From Promethearchaeia archaeon (GTDB lineage: Archaea > Asgardarchaeota > Lokiarchaeia > Sigyniarchaeales > SOKP01), in assembly GCA_046483985.1 (NCBI GenBank), contig JAWOCD010000108.1, positions 1 to 30,286 on the forward strand: DNA of 30,286 nucleotides, in the 5' to 3' direction. Under the pieces are notes generated by a model. The model was not told the origin of the DNA and searched no databases. It saw only the letters and a list, made by a program, of their open reading frames with translations. Positions 7,587-26,577 of the stretch are shown here, one piece after another (the first letter of the stretch is position 1; each line of letters starts with the position of its first letter). The position numbers were made by a program, and so were the translations under genes.

Positions 7587-9026
7587 TTAGAGCAAATAGG
7601 TGTTGTGATACCAATCTTCAAAATTTTCAAAGCGCTCGGATTTATACTCTTTTAATAACTCTCCGTTGGCATCTTCCTCGATTTTCCTAAAAAGTTTCTC
7701 ATATATTGATTCGTTTCCCTCTATAATATTGGTATTCCATTCTGGATCATCCCTCAGATCAAATAACTTTCTATCCTTCTTGGTATTCCTTGTAATGAGG
7801 GCATATTTATCGTCTTTATAGGCCGTCCATAGACTCATTCCACAAGTCATGTAATCTCTGCCCTCAAGTACTGCATCGGTATTATCCACGAAAACGGAAA
7901 GATCTTTTCCCTCAACTTTTTTTGGCTTCTCTTTTCCAAGGAAGCCGTAAATTGTTGCTAATAAATCGTGATCATATACATAGGAATTATCAATCCGAAT
8001 GGGTCCATTTATATTACCAGGGGGTTTTATTATTAACGGGATATCGATTAATTCGGGATACATAAATTTTGGCACCTTTCCAATCGCTCCATGCTCGCCC
8101 AAGCCATGCCCGTGATCGCTAATTAAGATAATTAACGCATCTTCATAAAATTCCAACTCTTTTAACTGATTGATGAAATAACCGAACCACGCATCACATA
8201 AGGAAACTTCTCCAGCATAACATGCTTTCATATTCCGTAATTCTTCTGAGCTGATCAAATTTACGCTTTCTCCATAGATTGGCAGAATAATTTTGTTTCC
8301 CGAATACTCTTTATCTTTATACAGATTATAGTAATTCTCCGGAGGATCCCATGGTTCATGCGGATCAAACTCATCAATAATACAGAAATGGTTTGCTGTA
8401 TCCTTACTTTCTTTAATTGATTGAATTGCTCTTTTAAAGGTCTTCGCGGGCATATAATCCTCCTCTGACTCCCAGTCTTGTTTATTAGTAAAATATTTCT
8501 TAAGCAGCGTCTTTTGAATGCGCAAAGCGAATCGATTCTCTTTGGTTTTCTTCGGAAGATTGTTTTTCATTAATTTATTCAGTTCTGAACGCCTTCCTTT
8601 CCATGAGGGTTTATATTTATCATATTCATGACCACGAACGAAATGCCATTCATCAAATCCTAATTGAAAGTTCATATTAGGCTTAAATTGATGATAGGTA
8701 CTTGTGATAAAGGAAGTGAGATGTCCTGCTTTATTTAAATACTCTGAAATATGGATCTGATCATGAGGGATGGGGGTCCATCCTGGGGACTCAACGAAAT
8801 CATCCGTACGCACCTTTAAATCTTGATTAAAAGGAAAAGTTCGAATTCCTGTATGAATTGCCCTTCGCACGGGGATTGTCGGTAAACTTTCTGGATATGC
8901 TTTATCAAACACAAGTGAATCTTTTGCAAATTCATCAAAATTCGGCGTCTGAATCCAATCGTTTCCATAAATCTTGCCCGTATGGTCTTTTCTAAGGGTA
9001 TCGAAGACAATAAGAAATATTTTCAT
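7587..9026 (-). CDS. Sulfatase-like hydrolase (alkaline phosphatase superfamily) with Thr at the nucleophile position
   Basis: IVFDTLRKDH, QTPNFDEFA, TIPVRRAIHTG, FDPHEPWDPP, ISDHGHGLGEHG, IPLIIK, LFDLRDDPEW. Confidence 0.88.
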   Translation of the reverse strand: MKIFLIVFDTLRKDHTGKIYGNDWIQTPNFDEFAKDSLVFDKAYPESLPTIPVRRAIHTGIRTFPFNQDLKVRTDDFVESPGWTPIPHDQIHISEYLNKAGHLTSFITSTYHQFKPNMNFQLGFDEWHFVRGHEYDKYKPSWKGRRSELNKLMKNNLPKKTKENRFALRIQKTLLKKYFTNKQDWESEEDYMPAKTFKRAIQSIKESKDTANHFCIIDEFDPHEPWDPPENYYNLYKDKEYSGNKIILPIYGESVNLISSEELRNMKACYAGEVSLCDAWFGYFINQLKELEFYEDALIILISDHGHGLGEHGAIGKVPKFMYPELIDIPLIIKPPGNINGPIRIDNSYVYDHDLLATIYGFLGKEKPKKVEGKDLSVFVDNTDAVLEGRDYMTCGMSLWTAYKDDKYALITRNTKKDRKLFDLRDDPEWNTNIIEGNESIYEKLFRKIEEDANGELLKEYKSERFENFEDWYHNTYLL

Positions 9027-9114
9027 GATTTTTTACTTTTGTATAATGAACACTTTCCTTATGAAATTATATATTTTTAAAAAACCATAATATTTTAATT
9101 ATAGATCCTTAGTA

Positions 9115-10533
9115 GTGAGACCCGTGGATCAAAATCAACAAAAAGAAAAAGGTAAATTCAACAAGAGATATCCGCTGCGGATAATCGCGTCCTATGAGCT
9201 TGGTATGCTAATTTGGATGATGATGAATCAGATTTTTGTGCAGCAAACACAATATTATTACCAAAATGTAATAGGATTAGGAGCCGGGCTTATTGCTTTG
9301 GCTTTTATCATCTATACTATCTTTAATATGTTTAACGATCCTATAATTGGACATTTCTCGGATAAATCTACCCGTTTTCGCGAAAAATGGGGAAAACGAT
9401 TTCCATTTATCATGATGGGGATAATCCCGTTCTCTTTCACCTTAATTTTTATATTTGGAGCGCCTAAAGTCAGTCAAGTCGGTCCGTTAGCTGTATTCTT
9501 TTGGTTACTCTTTTTTATATGTATGTATGATCTCTTCTTTAGCATATTTGATGTTAATCACGGAGCTTTATTCCCCGAAAAATTCAGAAATGATAAAGAT
9601 AGGAAACTGGCAGGGATGGTAGATACCATCTTGGAAACTATTGGTATTTTGCTTGGAATCGTTGTACCAATAATCATTATTGATTCAGTGGGTGGATGGC
9701 TTGGGTATTTTATTCAAGGAATTATCATTTCTATCGTTTGCTTCGTATTTGCCCTCCTTATGATTCCAGGGGTTAAAGAAGATCCAGAAGTGAAAGAGCG
9801 CTATGCGGAAAAAGAGACTCAAGAATCTATTGAGTTCTTCACGGGGATGAAATCTGCCATAAAGGACAAAAATTTAATTGGATTCATGTGTCTTTACACT
9901 GCATATGCAACCACCATGGGTATTCTTATTGCATCTGTTCCCTACTTCGTGGACGATATTTTACACTTGCCAAAGACTGGAGAATTGGTCTTGATTGCTT
10001 ATTTGGTTGCTGTACCTATAACAGCTGGCATATGGTATAAACTTTCGTTTAAAATTGGAATAAAAAACGTTACCCTTATTGGTGCTATCATTCTCTCCTC
10101 TATGGGGTTACCTCTATTATTTGTACCCGCGGACCCCAGCGGATTAGCCCTTTTTTTGATTGTATTATTTTTGGCGGGATTAGTAGATGGAGCAATAATT
10201 AGCATGAAATTTCCGGTATTTTCTAGTATTGTCGATGTGGCAACTATTGAGTCAGAGAAACATGAAGAAGGGTTATACAAGGGGATCTTTACCTTTTTTC
10301 AGAGACTGGGTATTACCATCCGAGTTGTTATTTTTTGGATAGTCCAAGCACTCAGCGGATATGACCCTACCACTCCGAATACTTCAGCAGAATTATGTGG
10401 ATTACGTATTCAAGTTTCTATAATCCCTATGATTATTATGTTCTTTGGAATTGTTATTTTCTGGAGATTTTATCAAATCTCTCGCTCAGATTTAGAGAAA
10501 AATTTAGAGGAATTGGACAAGATGGGTTTATGA
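9115..10533 (+). CDS. MFS transporter, glycoside-pentoside-hexuronide (MelB/GPH) family
   Basis: About 12 TM helices; NDPIIGHFSDK, WGKRFPF, ALFPE, EGLYKGIFTFF. Confidence 0.88.
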   Translation: MRPVDQNQQKEKGKFNKRYPLRIIASYELGMLIWMMMNQIFVQQTQYYYQNVIGLGAGLIALAFIIYTIFNMFNDPIIGHFSDKSTRFREKWGKRFPFIMMGIIPFSFTLIFIFGAPKVSQVGPLAVFFWLLFFICMYDLFFSIFDVNHGALFPEKFRNDKDRKLAGMVDTILETIGILLGIVVPIIIIDSVGGWLGYFIQGIIISIVCFVFALLMIPGVKEDPEVKERYAEKETQESIEFFTGMKSAIKDKNLIGFMCLYTAYATTMGILIASVPYFVDDILHLPKTGELVLIAYLVAVPITAGIWYKLSFKIGIKNVTLIGAIILSSMGLPLLFVPADPSGLALFLIVLFLAGLVDGAIISMKFPVFSSIVDVATIESEKHEEGLYKGIFTFFQRLGITIRVVIFWIVQALSGYDPTTPNTSAELCGLRIQVSIIPMIIMFFGIVIFWRFYQISRSDLEKNLEELDKMGL

Positions 10534-14668: not shown

Positions 14669-15271
14669 TTATTTCATTGTGGCAGATACGAGGAAATATA
14701 CGAGATTGTCAATCAAATCATCTTTATTTATTTCTCTTGATGTAATCCACCAATGAAAGGCTTCGAGAATAGATGAGACCCATAATCTAGCGGTAAGTCG
14801 AGTATTTTGCTCTCTGCCCAAACCTGAATCTATTACTCGCTTTATGATTTTCTCCACTTCGGTCGTAAAGTTGGCTTGATATTTGTTCTTAAGGTCATTA
14901 TATTTTTTACTAATACCTCCCATTTGTTCCATATAAATTAAGAAAATTTGCTCCTTTTCTTTAAACATTTCCATGTAACTCCTAAATAGGTCCCTGATCG
15001 CTTCGAGAGGAGGGATTTGGTGATTATCTAAAGTCTTTAACTTTTTCATCATTAATTTATATAATTGAGTGATTAATTCTTCGAATATACTCTCTTTACT
15101 TTCAAAATATCGGTAAAAGTTACCAACTGAGGTATCTGCTTTGCTCGTGATGTCTTTTACCCGCGTGTCATGGAACCCTTGCTTCTCGAAAACCTTAACT
15201 GCAGACATTAAATAGAGTTCCTTTTTTTGCTTTCGTATTCGTTTATTCCGCTTTTCTCTTTTTGATGTCAT
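14669..15271 (-). CDS. TetR/AcrR family transcriptional regulator
   Basis: N-terminal HTH: SAVKVFEKQGFHDTRVKDITSKADTSVGNFYRYFESKE. Confidence 0.93.
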   Translation of the reverse strand: MTSKREKRNKRIRKQKKELYLMSAVKVFEKQGFHDTRVKDITSKADTSVGNFYRYFESKESIFEELITQLYKLMMKKLKTLDNHQIPPLEAIRDLFRSYMEMFKEKEQIFLIYMEQMGGISKKYNDLKNKYQANFTTEVEKIIKRVIDSGLGREQNTRLTARLWVSSILEAFHWWITSREINKDDLIDNLVYFLVSATMK

Positions 15272-15334
15272 AATTCACTATGAAAAAACATATGATGATA
15301 TTTGAAAATTAAGAAAAAAATTTGAAACTCGGAT

Positions 15335-17347
15335 TTATCCAATAATGAGGCTCTGATCATAGAACCCAGTGATTCTGTCCTCGACGACCAGAAATTCTTT
15401 ACTATTTTCATAGAGCTTATCGATCCACTCGCTTAAATCTTCGCAAATTTGTTCCCTTTTAAATTTATAGGTCGGCGTAATATAATCTTCTTCTTGACAG
15501 AAGTCTTTACAACTGATCAGGAATTTTTTGGGTACCGAATAATCCGACACATTTTCACATAAGTCGTGGATTTCTTTTTTGATTTGCTGTTGAATTTCCT
15601 CATTCTTGACAAGGTCCTCCCATGTGTCGTACTCAATATCCTGTTCTTCAGCATATTCCTTGAAGGGTTCTTGATATGGGACTACAATACCCGTGAGATA
15701 TTTTCGTGTATCGTCGCCTACTAACATGAATTGGGCTACCTTCTTTGACACCGGAACGACCAATCCTTCGACCGCTGCGGGTGAGATCATCTTGCCGGTT
15801 TGAAGTTTAATGACTACCTTAGCCCTTCCTGTAATTTTAACATACCCATTCTCATCAATCTCTGCTAAGTCGCCGGTATGCAGCCATCCATCATCATCGA
15901 GTGCGGCATTAGTTAACTTGGCTTTCTTCCAGTATCCCTTCATAACCATAGGACCTCGAATTAGTAATTCGCCCTCGTCTGAGAGTTTCTGTTCCACTGG
16001 TTCATAAGGATTATCTTCTATATCAATTGTGGGTCCAATACTACCTAGTTGCGTATATTCATTCACTTTGTTATCGGTTTTTGGATGATAATTTGAATTA
16101 TGCTCTGTTCGTAATAAATGCGTGACTGGGGCGGCTTCGGTCAACCCATAACCTTCTATAAGATTGAACTTAAACATATTAAAGAAGACTAGGAGATCTT
16201 GTGCAATCGCTGCTGACCCTGAAATCATTAATTTAAGTTTTCCGCCGAAATTTTTCTTTAAAATTCGATATATTACATTTCTGATAAGTCCAAATTTTAT
16301 TCTTAATCCTAATGGTGGTTTTTCTCCTTTCACCTTATATTGAGCCCATTTTCTTCCCATCTCCTCCGCATTGTCAAAGATATCTTGGACTTTACCAGGG
16401 TAATCTTCTACTTCTTGCTGCACAATGTTATAGATCTTTTGAAAGAGATAAGGGATTCCTACAATGATGGTGGGATGAAATGTTTCCATCGCCTTTCGTA
16501 TCTTTTCTGGGTTAAGTTCTTCCACGATATCCATAGTAGCGCCGATATAAAGACAGCAGTATTCATTTACTGTTCTGCCGAATGAATGTGCAAACGGTAA
16601 GAGAGCTAACATATCCATTTCCCATGGCTTTTCTTTTTCCCTAAGAGTGGCAGTCACGGAGATAGAAAGATAAGCATCGGAAAGGAAATTCTTATGGGTG
16701 AGCATGACCCCTTTCGGAACCCCGGTCGTACCCGAGGTATAAATCAAACTCGCCATGTCATCCTCTTCGATGTTTTTTATATGATTCTCTAACTTATCAT
16801 CTTCGCTCTCAGGTAAATAAAGCATTCCTTTATTGATTAACTCCTCAAAAGGGATTAAATAATCCCTTTCCAAAGATCTATCGAAATCGTCAAAGACAAT
16901 AATATGACTCAGATGAGGCAAATTCTCTTCAATAGAAAGGATTTTCCTTAAGTTTTCTTCTGTGTCCACGAAAATTGCCCTTGCTTCAGAATCTTTCAAG
17001 ATATATTCCATTTCTTTCGGCTTGAGTGAGGGATATATTGCAACATTGACCGCTCCCAGGGCTTGGATACCAAGATCTGTCCAGACCCATTCTGGACGAG
17101 TTTCAGCGCAGAGTGCAATATGATCTGATTTGGAATAACCCAATCTGCACAAGCCGCCATAGATCCATCTCATCTTTTTACCCAGTTCCTTATACGTGAG
17201 AGACTCTACATTATATTCATCATCCATAAACCACTTCATGGCGTCCTTTTTTCCGTGATCATCAATAGTTCCCAAGACCATTTCGGGAATATTGGTATAC
17301 CTTTTTATCGAAAAATATTTGTTATAATTCTTATATACTTCAGACAT
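15335..17347 (-). CDS. fadD: Long-chain fatty acid-CoA ligase (AMP-binding)
   Basis: IYTSGTTGVPKGVMLTH, EGYGLTE, GELLIRGPMVMKGYW, GWLHTGDL, ITGRAK, ITPTYKFKR. Confidence 0.9.
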   Translation of the reverse strand: MSEVYKNYNKYFSIKRYTNIPEMVLGTIDDHGKKDAMKWFMDDEYNVESLTYKELGKKMRWIYGGLCRLGYSKSDHIALCAETRPEWVWTDLGIQALGAVNVAIYPSLKPKEMEYILKDSEARAIFVDTEENLRKILSIEENLPHLSHIIVFDDFDRSLERDYLIPFEELINKGMLYLPESEDDKLENHIKNIEEDDMASLIYTSGTTGVPKGVMLTHKNFLSDAYLSISVTATLREKEKPWEMDMLALLPFAHSFGRTVNEYCCLYIGATMDIVEELNPEKIRKAMETFHPTIIVGIPYLFQKIYNIVQQEVEDYPGKVQDIFDNAEEMGRKWAQYKVKGEKPPLGLRIKFGLIRNVIYRILKKNFGGKLKLMISGSAAIAQDLLVFFNMFKFNLIEGYGLTEAAPVTHLLRTEHNSNYHPKTDNKVNEYTQLGSIGPTIDIEDNPYEPVEQKLSDEGELLIRGPMVMKGYWKKAKLTNAALDDDGWLHTGDLAEIDENGYVKITGRAKVVIKLQTGKMISPAAVEGLVVPVSKKVAQFMLVGDDTRKYLTGIVVPYQEPFKEYAEEQDIEYDTWEDLVKNEEIQQQIKKEIHDLCENVSDYSVPKKFLISCKDFCQEEDYITPTYKFKREQICEDLSEWIDKLYENSKEFLVVEDRITGFYDQSLIIG

Positions 17348-23548: not shown

Positions 23549-24346
23549 TTAATCTTTATCCTTCAGATATTTACATTGCCAAAGGAAATTTTCAATGATC
23601 TGCTTCCCTTCGGTCTTGGTTTTTGTCACTATCCTTTCCTCAAAATGACTTGCATGGAAATAGGTACCGGTATGGGTTTCGGGATGGAATTGTACTGCAT
23701 AGATAGGTCTAGTTTTATGGTGTAGATACTGAACTATTCTATAGCGATTATTATTAGAAACCGAGAGTATGTTAAAATGCTCATGAATTTTGATGTCATT
23801 AGGAGATAAAAAATCCCGGTGATGAGCATTCACAGGGAGGTTCTTTTTGGTAATAATCTCATCGGTCTCATCCAAGAGAATAAATACGATTCGTCCACCT
23901 AAACCTGGAACTCTCATACGATTCACATCAGCACCATAGGCAAAGCCAACGAGGTGATGGCCAAAACACACTCCCAAGATGGGAATGTCCTCATTAGTCC
24001 GGATAAATTCTAACTGGGGATCGTATCGCTTTTTGAGATGATTGTCGAAGTAGAGAGAGGATACGTTGTTAGACGAGCCACTTAAAATTACTCCAATGCT
24101 CTTTTTCGCTTCTTCTTTACTAAAGCGGGTATAATGCACTGTTTTAACGGCTAATTCAGCAATACTTCCCGTAATTATAGATTCAAATCTAGAAATTCGA
24201 TCGGTAGGAAACCCAAACGGATAGTTATCTACCAAATAAATATAATCTCTTTCCTCTTTATGGTTTTTTTCTTGTTCTTCTCCTTCTAGATCTTCTTTTT
24301 TTGGTGGTTCTTGACCCTCTTCTGTAAGGTTTTCTTTTTCATTCAT
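23549..24346 (-). CDS. Class I glutamine amidotransferase / gamma-glutamyl hydrolase-like protein
   Basis: VILSGS, PILGVCFGHH (catalytic Cys), AVQFHPE (His-Glu), IIENF; Glu-rich N-terminal tail. Confidence 0.88.
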   Translation of the reverse strand: MNEKENLTEEGQEPPKKEDLEGEEQEKNHKEERDYIYLVDNYPFGFPTDRISRFESIITGSIAELAVKTVHYTRFSKEEAKKSIGVILSGSSNNVSSLYFDNHLKKRYDPQLEFIRTNEDIPILGVCFGHHLVGFAYGADVNRMRVPGLGGRIVFILLDETDEIITKKNLPVNAHHRDFLSPNDIKIHEHFNILSVSNNNRYRIVQYLHHKTRPIYAVQFHPETHTGTYFHASHFEERIVTKTKTEGKQIIENFLWQCKYLKDKD

Positions 24347-24371
24347 TTTAGAATATGCACCTCGACGAGTT

Positions 24372-24716
24372 TTAGGTATATTTGTTTATCAGTCTGTCAG
24401 ACGGGTAATATGTATACGCATCAACAAGTTCTCCTTCTCTTGTTTTTACTTTTACCGCTATTCTATGGTATAAATTACCTTCTCCCTCGACAATATCAAT
24501 TTTCGTCATTAGTTCCTCGTCTAACCCGTAATAGACTTCTCCTTCGACTTTTGACCCTTCATCTTCTACGATAAACGGAAAACCGAGTTCCTCTGGTTTT
24601 ACTTTTTTATAGTCCAACAATAACCCAACGTCAAATGGTAAATCTTTTAAGATATAGTTTCTGCTTTCACCCTTTCGGAGGGTTCCATAAACAAAAAGAT
24701 TATGGGTTTCTGACAT
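24372..24716 (-). CDS. Gamma-glutamylcyclotransferase (GGCT/AIG2-like)
   Basis: LFVYGTLRKG, VEGEVY, IDIVEG, LYHR, AYTY. Confidence 0.92.
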   Translation of the reverse strand: MSETHNLFVYGTLRKGESRNYILKDLPFDVGLLLDYKKVKPEELGFPFIVEDEGSKVEGEVYYGLDEELMTKIDIVEGEGNLYHRIAVKVKTREGELVDAYTYYPSDRLINKYT

Positions 24717-24754
24717 TTTTTTATTTTTAATAATGTGGTTTTTAATTTCTATTT

Positions 24755-26230
24755 TTATATATTAAACAGATCGAAACCGCTAAAAAGGCGATCCGCAAGG
24801 GATTCTGCTTCGCTAAAGGTACTGATTATTTTATCTTTTTCAATTAGAGGAATTTTTACCCCTTGAACTTGAAGGCTGTTAATTACTTTTAATCCGCTAA
24901 ACTCCGCTACTATCCCATCCTCCTCTTTATAATCCATATGAAACTCTGCTGTGAGTTTTCCCCTTATTCTGGCGCCAGCTGATACCTTATATTGGTTTCC
25001 TCTCTTATCCGATATAAGTCTTGTTTCCCCAATCCGTACTGTAACATAAGTTTTTCCTTGTTGGCGTATTTTTTCAATTTTACGGGTTTGATAATTAACA
25101 TCCAAGGCAGAAATATGTTGTTCTCGTTGTAATTTACCTGTAGGGAGATATTTTATTTTAATTCCGAGATAATCTTGGTATTGGGAAGTCTGATCAACCC
25201 AATTAGTGAGACTTTCGCTCAAACTATCTTTTCCTCCATTCTCTCTTTTAAATGTCGAATCTCTTCCGTGTGCAATTGCAGTTTCTACATTGTCTTGATG
25301 ATAAGGATCCAATAATATTTCTCCCGTCTGATTTAAGTATAAGGCATGGAGGGCTGATACACAACATAAATATGCAATATCAAGGACATCCTCGATCTTA
25401 TGCTGTGCATCAATAATTCTTACCTCTACTCGATTTCGAGTGGGGGACTCATCTTTATCATCCCCAATATTGGTAAAAGGTCCGCGCGGAGTGATATCTA
25501 CTAAGCGGTCTCCACTGGAGTTGGTAATTACCTTCTTTGAGAATTCATCGTCAGTGGTTGAACCGATCTTTAATTGATATCTCATTCTCCCGTAGTATCT
25601 CATGGGGACGAGCGCCGGACGATTTTCGGGCACCTTAATTTTTGCGGGGTCATTTCTCTTAAGGACCGTGCTATTGGCGCATCGATTACTCGCAATATTA
25701 TTTATTTTTCCCTCATATATAGGAGAATTTGCCGTGATCGCTATTAGTTCAGGAAGATAATTCCAAAGATAATTATTAACCGCTTTTAATTCTCCTGGTT
25801 TCATTAAGTTACCTTTTTTCTGTACGGATACATTTATATGCGTACCTACAATCGGATGAGGGTCACTCTGAATGGGATGGAGACTCTGTGCAAAAAGTTT
25901 GACTCCTAATTGGTCGGCAGCATCTTGAAGCAATTTTCTTCCCGCTTTCGTAGCTTCTTCCAAGTCTATTGGAGATAAAGGAAGTGTCACGTATTCAATT
26001 TGGGCGGGATTGGGCTCCGCATCAAGCCCACGAATTTGTACTTGGAGCGTATCCAATAAATCTGGTCTATTTTCAAGAATCTGGGCAGCAGTTTTCATTA
26101 ATTCATCGGCAGCCTCTACTAAGGAACCATCCCCGTTCACCAAAAGAAATTCTTCCTCAATTCCGCATAATACTTGGTATTTTTCGTAAAACTTCTGGTC
26201 AATTTCTTTAGTTTTATTATGAAAAAACAT
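24755..26230 (-). CDS. Glutamate-cysteine ligase family (GCS2/YbdK-like) carboxylate-amine ligase with C-terminal extension
   Basis: GIEEEFLLV, E-x4-QIE, HP, GTHINV, LPELIAITANSP, ASNR, DITPR, RVEVRIID. Confidence 0.85.
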   Translation of the reverse strand: MFFHNKTKEIDQKFYEKYQVLCGIEEEFLLVNGDGSLVEAADELMKTAAQILENRPDLLDTLQVQIRGLDAEPNPAQIEYVTLPLSPIDLEEATKAGRKLLQDAADQLGVKLFAQSLHPIQSDPHPIVGTHINVSVQKKGNLMKPGELKAVNNYLWNYLPELIAITANSPIYEGKINNIASNRCANSTVLKRNDPAKIKVPENRPALVPMRYYGRMRYQLKIGSTTDDEFSKKVITNSSGDRLVDITPRGPFTNIGDDKDESPTRNRVEVRIIDAQHKIEDVLDIAYLCCVSALHALYLNQTGEILLDPYHQDNVETAIAHGRDSTFKRENGGKDSLSESLTNWVDQTSQYQDYLGIKIKYLPTGKLQREQHISALDVNYQTRKIEKIRQQGKTYVTVRIGETRLISDKRGNQYKVSAGARIRGKLTAEFHMDYKEEDGIVAEFSGLKVINSLQVQGVKIPLIEKDKIISTFSEAESLADRLFSGFDLFNI

Positions 26231-26304: not shown

Positions 26305-26577
26305 TTAAAAATTATATTGATGATGTCTAAAATTGTCTACGGGCTTTCTATATTCATACTCTATGTTATCTACTCGGGCTAATCGTGGACCTTCTTTGGC
26401 AAATTCTAACAATTCTTCCAATCGTTCTTTGGGACCTTGAGCCTCTATGTGAACGCTCCCATCAGACATATTTTGAGCGTAACCCTCCAACCCTAACTTT
26501 CTGGCGGTTTTCTTCGTCGAATATCGAAAGAAAACCCCTTGTACGCGACCTTCAACATCAATTACAATTCGCTTCAT
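26305..26577 (-). CDS. acyP: Acylphosphatase
   Basis: GRVQGVFFR, GYAQNMSDGSV, GPRLARV. Confidence 0.95.
   Translation of the reverse strand: MKRIVIDVEGRVQGVFFRYSTKKTARKLGLEGYAQNMSDGSVHIEAQGPKERLEELLEFAKEGPRLARVDNIEYEYRKPVDNFRHHQYNF

Follow-up and report, generated by a model that had tools for sequence, protein, structure and literature searches.

In a stretch of 30,286 nucleotides from an Asgard archaeon, labelled Promethearchaeia archaeon (assembly GCA_046483985.1, contig JAWOCD010000108.1; 'the window' below), three co-oriented open reading frames (ORFs) lie together on the minus strand: a carboxylate-amine ligase, then a gamma-glutamylcyclotransferase (GGCT) of the GGACT type, then a glutamine amidotransferase (GATase) of class I. 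We read the trio as an accessory operon whose products build a small gamma-glutamyl amide or amine and break it down again, and give this reading a probability of about 0.5. The operon itself is real and conserved; operons of its kind were predicted in bacteria and phages in 2008-2009, and its ligase family is uncharacterised. What carries the reading is the company the ligase keeps: in 59 of 59 related loci with an uncut ligase gene, at least one gene for a glutamyl-amide-cleaving enzyme lies no more than 2 kb from it, and these partners fall into four unrelated folds, in each of which the characterised enzymes cut an amide at a glutamyl residue. By family chemistry, the ligase would activate the gamma-carboxylate of glutamate with ATP, via an acyl phosphate, and join it to an amine, X-NH2; the GGACT-type cyclotransferase would free X-NH2 by cyclising the glutamyl moiety to 5-oxoproline; and the class I GATase-fold enzyme would free it by thiol-mediated hydrolysis to glutamate. 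The last enzyme may hydrolyse glutamine too.

The ligase (P0001; 491 amino acids (aa); 24755-26230, minus strand) has a divergent GCS2/YbdK fold and is predicted to form amides in an ATP-dependent manner. After a 38 bp spacer (24717-24754; median in orthologous loci 26 bp) comes the GGCT, a gamma-glutamyl(amine) cyclotransferase of GGACT/AIG2 type (P0002; PF06094; 114 aa; 24372-24716, minus); after a further 25 bp (24347-24371; median 17 bp) comes the putative thiol amidohydrolase of class I GATase fold (P0003; PF00117; 265 aa; 23549-24346, minus; triad C127/H221/E223). The second spacer cannot fit a promoter plus a small ORF, and the non-coding gaps flanking and between the three genes measure 74, 38, 25 and 15 bp. 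An earlier sequence-only reading of this DNA had described three co-oriented genes with short gaps and intact catalytic motifs; the coordinates hold, and all the motifs it named were found, invariant or nearly so across orthologs.

That reading would have been refuted had the three genes not been co-conserved in other genomes, which they are. Sixty related loci were drawn from species-representative genomes and scored by tblastn and by clustering of all ORFs. Co-conservation is strong: the series ligase, GGCT, class I GATase, with order and strand kept, recurs in 34 of the 60. Elsewhere the ligase is followed by the class I GATase alone (11/60), by the GGCT and a 300 aa amidotransferase of the N-terminal nucleophile (Ntn; class II, EgtC-like) type in Hod/Heimdall-type loci (7/60), or by the GGCT only (4/60: L036, L049, L051 and L053, one of them cut by a contig end). 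A deep Heimdall locus (L052) combines an FGase/poly-gamma-glutamate-hydrolase-like gene with the ligase and a divergent GGACT; two more loci have an FGase-family gene beside the ligase (Sif, L054; Njord, L058, also with an ATP-grasp gene); and one (L055) ends inside the ligase gene. In all, a GGCT follows the ligase in 46/60 loci. The trio was found in ten distinct upstream contexts with its short gaps retained, and therefore moves as a unit; its linkage is beyond chance.

Partner type follows the ligase tree, a quick IQ-TREE maximum likelihood tree with midpoint root, in which long-branch placements are uncertain. FGase-partnered ligases occupy deep, long branches; a 56-row clade (SH-aLRT support 99) divides into one subclade with GGCT and class II GATases (99) and another with class I GATases (98). 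GGCT is present in both of these major subclades, with several losses within the class I subclade. The 300 aa Hod/Heimdall partner starts MCRLLG, with Cys2 as the nucleophile, and matches class II GATases weakly; its sole NCBIfam match is EgtC (19 bits against a cut-off of 219). By sequence it is an Ntn-fold amidohydrolase. EgtC itself is a gamma-glutamyl hydrolase. In the deep branches, FGase is coupled to the ligase, with or without ATP-grasp, in Korarchaeia contigs, in a metagenome-assembled genome (MAG) labelled Methanopyri and in two other metagenomic members, the genes abutting or overlapping. The replacement of the class I GATase by Ntn EgtC-like or FGase-type enzymes fits the logic of making and breaking a gamma-glutamyl amide. 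The sequence-only reading had proposed a self-contained cycle of writing and erasing glutamyl groups on a small molecule or on proteins; the displacement of partners across clades supports the write-and-erase logic, while 'self-contained' and the protein target both lack support, as set out below.

The ligase and its relatives form a small family with sharp limits, found mostly in Asgard archaea, of proteins about 480 aa long with a YbdK-like core. The only Pfam match of the window ligase at E <= 0.01 is to GCS2 (PF04107; E 1e-9; 38.6 bits against a cut-off of 21), limited to residues 128-183. The fold and the catalytic residues are nonetheless those of GCS2/YbdK enzymes: G23-I-E25-E26-E27, Q77-I78-E79, G129-x-H131-x-N133, N168 in ANSP and E269-V-R271 are all present, and these residues are invariant in an alignment of 12 diverse orthologs. 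Foldseek ranks YbdK first against the AlphaFold model (1tt4/1r8g; E 1.5e-11), then PafA/Dop (E 4e-7), then glutamine synthetases; the model has a mean confidence (pLDDT) of 68.5, and region 171-264 is modelled poorly. A PDB sequence search with the ligase profile gave a marginal glutamine synthetase (GS) match alone (E 0.0016). In a word-indexed search the full-length relatives, some 480-490 aa long, numbered more than 120, and all of the named ones were Asgard. When 1.84 billion cluster representatives were searched exhaustively with a profile, only about 13 full-length representative clusters came up; beyond the family were two 320 aa proteins at 1e-24 and then canonical GCS2 proteins (about 360 aa), matched in part and at about 1e-9 to 1e-11. 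A 'strictly Asgard' family was considered and rejected, since Korarchaeia (Ca. Methanodesulfokora) and the MAG labelled Methanopyri also have distant members. Within the phylum, 43 of 301 sampled genomes carry the ligase (13 of 90 high-quality ones), in eight families; it is a patchily distributed accessory gene and no general Asgard trait.

Is this a plain GshA or YbdK? That would have told against the sequence-only reading, but the scores say otherwise. Against NCBIfam YbdK and GshA models the ligase reaches 20-55 bits where the cut-offs are 176-437: the best score, 55 against 176, is for the YbdK subfamily, and the equivalogs give 20-44 against 360-437. Nor does a 491 aa, two-domain protein resemble the YbdK/GshA equivalogs in size, these being single-domain proteins of about 360-380 aa. 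E. coli YbdK (1r8g, 1tt4) is the best structural match and shares the GhExE, QIE, GxHxN and ExR motifs, but identity is 15-16%, the Pfam match spans about 55 residues, and the window ligase has some 130 additional C-terminal residues and a conserved 171-264 region. These figures bear on the idea that the operon synthesises a low-molecular-weight thiol or peptide, the ligase being a divergent synthetase of gamma-glutamylcysteine or of a gamma-glutamyl amino acid and the GGCT and GATase degrading its product in a minimal gamma-glutamyl cycle. A GshA of GCS2 type is in use in haloarchaea, and the GCS2 affinity of the ligase speaks for this idea, as does the occurrence beside deep-branching ligases of ATP-grasp genes with GSH-S_ATP/YheCD-type matches, an arrangement that mirrors GshA plus GshB. 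The window operon, however, has no ATP-grasp gene; the ligase falls far under every GshA/YbdK equivalog cut-off, with a large score gap to canonical GCS2; the cyclotransferase is of the GGACT/AIG2 type rather than the GGCT/ChaC type; and a distribution of 13/90 high-quality genomes is not what one expects of a core redox buffer. We consider thiol or peptide synthesis unlikely, though marginally the likeliest of the alternatives.

The cyclotransferase points instead toward an amine. It scores 68.6 bits against PF06094 (GGACT/AIG2; E 9e-19; cut-off 22.8), and its motifs Y10-G11-T12-L13 and D74-x2-E77-G78 (E77-G-E79-G) are at least 95% conserved among 46 orthologs; Pfam score, YGxL motif and catalytic Glu all place it in the GGACT/AIG2 family. 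The nearest solved proteins are a plant AIG2-like protein (2jqv, 1.7e-8) and human GGACT (3jub, 2.4e-4). Characterised PF06094 members, such as human GGACT and BtrG, use gamma-glutamyl amines and not gamma-glutamyl alpha-amino acids; the latter, with glutathione, are the substrates of the GGCT/ChaC type. Because the GGCT is of the GGACT/AIG2 subtype, an amine acceptor is favoured over an alpha-amino acid. On our reading the acceptor would be a small amine, not cysteine and not a protein. Fold and motifs point to glutamate as the probable acyl donor, as does the fact that all four partner families are specific for glutamyl groups. The window genome (G000) has a second GGACT-family gene besides that of the window, on contig 74 (118375-118647).

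A protein acceptor is the most far-reaching of the alternatives: the ligase might glutamylate lysines, or join a peptide glutamate to protein amines as PafA does, with the GGCT and GATase removing the modification and a C-terminal domain recruiting the macromolecular substrate. That domain is real enough. Residues 362-491 (24758-25147, minus) form a separate beta-rich domain, conserved family-wide and kept even in the Korarchaeia members. Modelled alone it reaches a pLDDT of 86.7; it has no Foldseek match in the PDB at E <= 0.001 and no usable match in the ESM Atlas, and in the wide VIA-align comparison its best hits, at Z 4.7, are generic small beta-barrels (SH3b/WYL/Sm-like). It may bind the acceptor or a partner. 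The low-Z resemblance to small barrels that bind peptides or ligands is one point for tagging; others are PafA/Dop among the structural neighbours of the ligase, the TTL-like ATP-grasp beside the Njord ortholog, and the fact that human GGACT breaks down gamma-glutamyl-epsilon-lysine. That last activity, however, is on the free isopeptide and not on intact protein, and characterised GGACT enzymes require a glutamate with a free alpha-amino group. YbdK is also a much better structural match than PafA. Across the 60 loci there is no conserved short ORF and no linked proteasome or chaperone gene, and in the window the 74, 38, 25 and 15 bp gaps leave no room for a Pup-like small ORF. The protein target entertained in the sequence-only reading thus finds no footing here, and tagging by this operon is very improbable. 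Equally improbable is its extended form, in which the ligase is an Asgard protein- or peptide-gamma-glutamylating enzyme whose barrel recruits the target, with GGACT, GATase and FGase (plus the TTL-like ATP-grasp in deep branches) as a glutamylation and deglutamylation system.

The third gene poses a different question, whether its product is an eraser or a supplier of ammonia. Membership in class I is clear: PF00117 is matched at E 5.5e-20 (72.3 bits, cut-off 22.8), and the triad C127, H221 (in H221-P222-E223) and E223 is invariant in 20 orthologs. It is not subunit A of GMP synthase, as the earlier reading had allowed it might be: the protein reaches 68 bits against a cut-off of 198 for the model NF001975, and the same genome has on contig 45 a GuaA of 522 aa in fused form, which scores 191 bits where the window GATase scores 66. 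The subfamily is limited to the window's own taxonomic family, in 27 of 68 genomes. Glutamine-dependent amidation would have this GATase (class I here, class II in Hod/Heimdall) feed ammonia to the ligase, which would amidate an ATP-activated carboxylate, leaving the GGCT a side role; MurT/GatD and GatB/GatE, which work with glutaminase subunits, offer the likeness. The proposal draws on the tight gene coupling, on swaps between class I and class II GATases, which are typical of amidotransferases, and on the use of separate glutaminases by GatB and GatE within the GS-fold superfamily itself (Iyer, Burroughs and Aravind 2008, Biol Direct 3:45, PMC2588565). The nearest solved relatives of the GATase are, moreover, true ammonia-donor subunits, and the amidation model therefore stays alive. 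Against it, the GATase is intact, triad included, in at least nine genomes in which no ligase turned up; the deep-branching ligases have FGase-type Zn amidohydrolases as partners and lack a GATase altogether; the only family match of the Ntn replacement is EgtC, a hydrolase; and amidation gives no role to the GGCT, the partner common to both major clades. Amidation is, on balance, rather unlikely, and the GATase would act as a hydrolase, that is, an eraser, rather than as an ammonia donor.

Genomes without the ligase discriminate best on this point. The GATase subfamily occurs in about 12 genomes of the window's taxonomic family where no ligase was found, and in at least nine such sister genomes GGCT and GATase are both intact. 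At L081, L082 and L090 the syntenic block is whole and the ligase cleanly absent; L083 retains a ligase relic of residues 419-462 (L083:4973-5098) upstream of an intact GGCT-GATase pair; at L084 and L087 the GATase is the sole remaining gene of the trio. Frames are open and catalytic residues present in 11 of the 12 ligase-less regions, the GATase match at L092 having one in-frame stop. There are signs of repeated ligase decay. That the GATase outlives loss of the ligase fits a free-standing hydrolase and not an obligate glutaminase subunit of the ligase. Split and interrupted copies are also seen elsewhere: the ligase lies in two frames on contig 35 of G195 (14747-16338) and at L060:2712-4315, and some GATase copies (G008, G129, G135, G183) have in-frame stops.

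Survival of the erasers alone is one of two observations that tell against a self-contained cycle. The other is a second, very divergent GCS2-like paralog of 600 aa, on contig 24 of the window genome (49317-51116, plus) and also at L070:652-2454. It scores 21.5 bits against PF04107 and has 27% identity to the window ligase over 257 aa. Within the window's taxonomic family it is near-core, present in 58 of 71 genomes and 34 of 36 high-quality ones, and it was also detected in the sampled genomes that carry the GGCT or GATase and lack the ligase. Its neighbours have no Pfam matches. It could serve as an alternative writer.

A further perspective sets the ligase aside as a dispensable accessory and supposes that GGCT and GATase degrade imported or endogenous gamma-glutamyl compounds, or glutamine, for catabolic salvage, glutamate carbon passing to a pathway of the 2-hydroxyacyl-CoA-dehydratase type. 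This arises from the genes found upstream. At 25 trio loci a same-strand block lies immediately upstream of the operon and comprises two VIT1 genes, an HgdC/BcrAD-type activator ATPase and two HGD-D subunits (2-hydroxyacyl-CoA dehydratase / double-cubane-type; for example L012:947-5912 and 8620-9975). A further HGD-D paralog is in some cases coupled to the end of the GATase gene, whose stop it overlaps in L012, and at five loci (L081, L082, L084, L087 and L090) an HGD-D gene still precedes the GATase after loss of the ligase or of ligase and GGCT. In Hod/Heimdall loci the upstream set is another: a GlcD-like FAD-linked oxidase between two CCG-domain Fe-S proteins, 44 bp upstream of the ligase, and, downstream of the Ntn amidotransferase, a convergent gene for an APH-family kinase (L042:1649-5213 and 8066-9010; also L040 and L047, and partially L046). 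Both sets encode enzymes of 2-hydroxyacid type, which is suggestive of glutamate-derived carbon. The HGD-like block is missing, however, from the window and about nine other trio loci; its linkage, confined to close relatives, may be inherited synteny; and salvage leaves unexplained the ATP-consuming ligase, the member of the trio most conserved across phyla. Salvage as the purpose of the operon is quite unlikely.

Several observations weigh against our own reading, in which a small gamma-glutamyl amide or amine is made and turned over. Two erasers for one writer look redundant. No 5-oxoprolinase of the PxpA (PF03746) or HyuB/OplB (PF02538) kind was found in the 97%-complete window genome, which leaves the fate of 5-oxoproline unexplained; the thought that the ligase might itself be a cryptic 5-oxoprolinase was dropped, having neither precedent nor supporting evidence, and is most improbable. 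The closest solved relatives of the GATase are ammonia donors, namely the GuaA subunit A (8.6e-19), TrpG, PabA and CarA; no chain of PuuD/C26 type is among its PDB matches at E <= 1e-5, and its match to Peptidase_C26 (PF07722) is weak (24.2 bits, cut-off 20.5), with no single significant stretch, PF00117 scoring higher. Within the window's taxonomic family the GATase is linked to the HGD-like block at least as persistently as to the ligase. Ligase residues 171-264, strongly conserved yet poorly modelled, hide the acceptor pocket. Finally, the loci compared show no consistent link of the ligase to a transporter, to an amine-producing enzyme or to any further biosynthetic gene.

Add-then-remove chemistry has several characterised examples: PuuA/PuuD acting in putrescine metabolism, EgtA/EgtC in that of ergothioneine and BtrJ/BtrG in that of butirosin. 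In each, an ATP-dependent ligase glutamylates an amine and a second enzyme takes the glutamyl group off again, the remover having a class I GATase fold (PuuD), an Ntn GATase fold (EgtC) or an AIG2 fold (BtrG). All three remover folds are seen beside the archaeal ligase family. The differences are also clear. Those pairs are embedded in longer pathways, with oxidases, methyltransferases or carrier proteins acting between the two steps, while no conserved intervening enzyme occurs here; the class I partner is nearer to GuaA/TrpG-type subunits than to PuuD; and the Ntn partner lies far under the EgtC cut-off (19 against 219 bits). An EgtA/EgtC pair is not indicated by the neighbourhood either, there being no EgtB/EgtD-type gene among the conserved neighbours, which is where it was sought, no genome-wide search having been made.

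Closer in composition are systems that, like this one, are predicted and lack experimental characterisation. Iyer and coworkers described an uncharacterised family of GCS2-sized carboxylate-amine ligases ('new CAL') without Pup-like ORFs, predicted to make glutathione-like peptides or metabolites (PMC2588565). The window ligase resembles it as a GS-fold ligase related to GCS2 with no Pup-like ORF nearby; it differs in being archaeal (Asgard and Korarchaeia) rather than bacterial, in its length of about 480 aa and in its extra C-terminal beta-barrel, and its operon holds both partner types together, unlike 'new CAL'. The families are here set apart by description. The sequence-only reading had held that such neighbourhoods were predicted in bacteria, which this source confirms; they were predicted for phages as well (PMC11945000). 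That paper and another (PMC11318856), both citing Iyer et al. 2009 (Mol Biosyst 5:1636), describe in phiEco32/LUZ24-type phages a module of GGCT, ATP-grasp, amidohydrolase, amidoligase and COOH-NH2 ligase whose product is unknown. The window has ligase, GGCT and GATase, and the deep-branching contexts supply ATP-grasp and FGase; GS-fold COOH-NH2 ligases, glutamine amidotransferase, GGCT, amidohydrolase and ATP-grasp, as reported for the phage cassette, thus all recur across the archaeal contexts. As far as the same descriptions go, the window module differs from the cassette in being chromosomal, in having a single ligase, and in that its GATase is of class I, not class II. Its ligase has no phage relative: tblastn against 50,697 phage records gave no match, no PHROG family was hit, and phage family matches exist among the trio for GGCT and GATase only. 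The ligase is therefore no member of the phage ligase families, although the component logic is shared. A literature search on gamma-glutamyl enzymes in Asgard archaea found nothing relevant.

Adding and then removing a gamma-glutamyl group recurs in amine catabolism, in cofactor and antibiotic biosynthesis and in thiol buffers. The theme will not surprise a specialist; the comparative signal, on the other hand, is clean. Four unrelated cleaving folds on one ligase family speak with unusual clarity, as comparative evidence goes, for a ligase product that is a glutamyl amide and needs dedicated removal, and both the family and its C-terminal domain are new to biochemistry. With the acceptor known, a new metabolite or modification of archaea could be named, and the amidoligase neighbourhoods predicted in 2008-2009 would have their first biochemical anchor. 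A bearing on eukaryogenesis is unlikely for an accessory, patchy module unless protein tagging proves true; in that case the archaea would have their own equivalent of pupylation, or a precursor of the TTLL/CCP glutamylation of eukaryotes.

The remaining neighbours of the trio in the window, encoding an acylphosphatase, an alanine dehydrogenase and an alpha/beta hydrolase, were considered as members of the module and rejected, being absent from all 60 loci; the flanking genes of the window adjoin the ligase in none of the other loci. The acylphosphatase gene (PF00708, E 3e-24; 26305-26577, minus) lies on the same strand, 74 bp upstream of the ligase. An acyl phosphate is the presumed intermediate of the ligase, but the adjacency is probably a coincidence, no such gene occurring near the ligase in the 60 related loci.

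Other observations concern single genes or loci. The GATase begins with a charged, low-complexity tail (residues 1-34; 24245-24346, minus), whose length varies among orthologs from about 30 to 170 aa. Longer, K/E/D/N-rich tails are found at L030, L032, L039 and L043; long GATase ORFs at loci without a GGCT were suspected of being GGCT-GATase fusions, but the extensions are charged low-complexity tails with no Pfam match. At L049 (7496-9043) and L053 (7460-9043), a 4-alpha-glucanotransferase gene (GH77, E 2e-182) stands between ligase and GGCT. L050 (WJJB01000469.1), a ligase-GATase locus in a MAG labelled Bathyarchaeota, is a long branch nested in the Lokiarchaeia-type clade with class I GATases, which suggests mis-binning or lateral transfer. 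In the Njordarchaeota locus (L058:1566-5204) the order is ATP-grasp, FGase-family amidohydrolase, ligase; the best Pfam match of the ATP-grasp protein is to the tubulin-tyrosine ligase (TTL) family (E 3.4e-7), with YheCD and GSH-S matches too, and a Korarchaeia locus (L071) has the same set of three. The FGase-family ORF adjoining the ligase in Ca. Sifarchaeum (L054:446-1303, minus) has a histone-fold match at residues 216-277 (CBFD_NFYB_HMF, E 2e-9); either this is an uncommon kind of fusion, or ORF calling has merged two genes.

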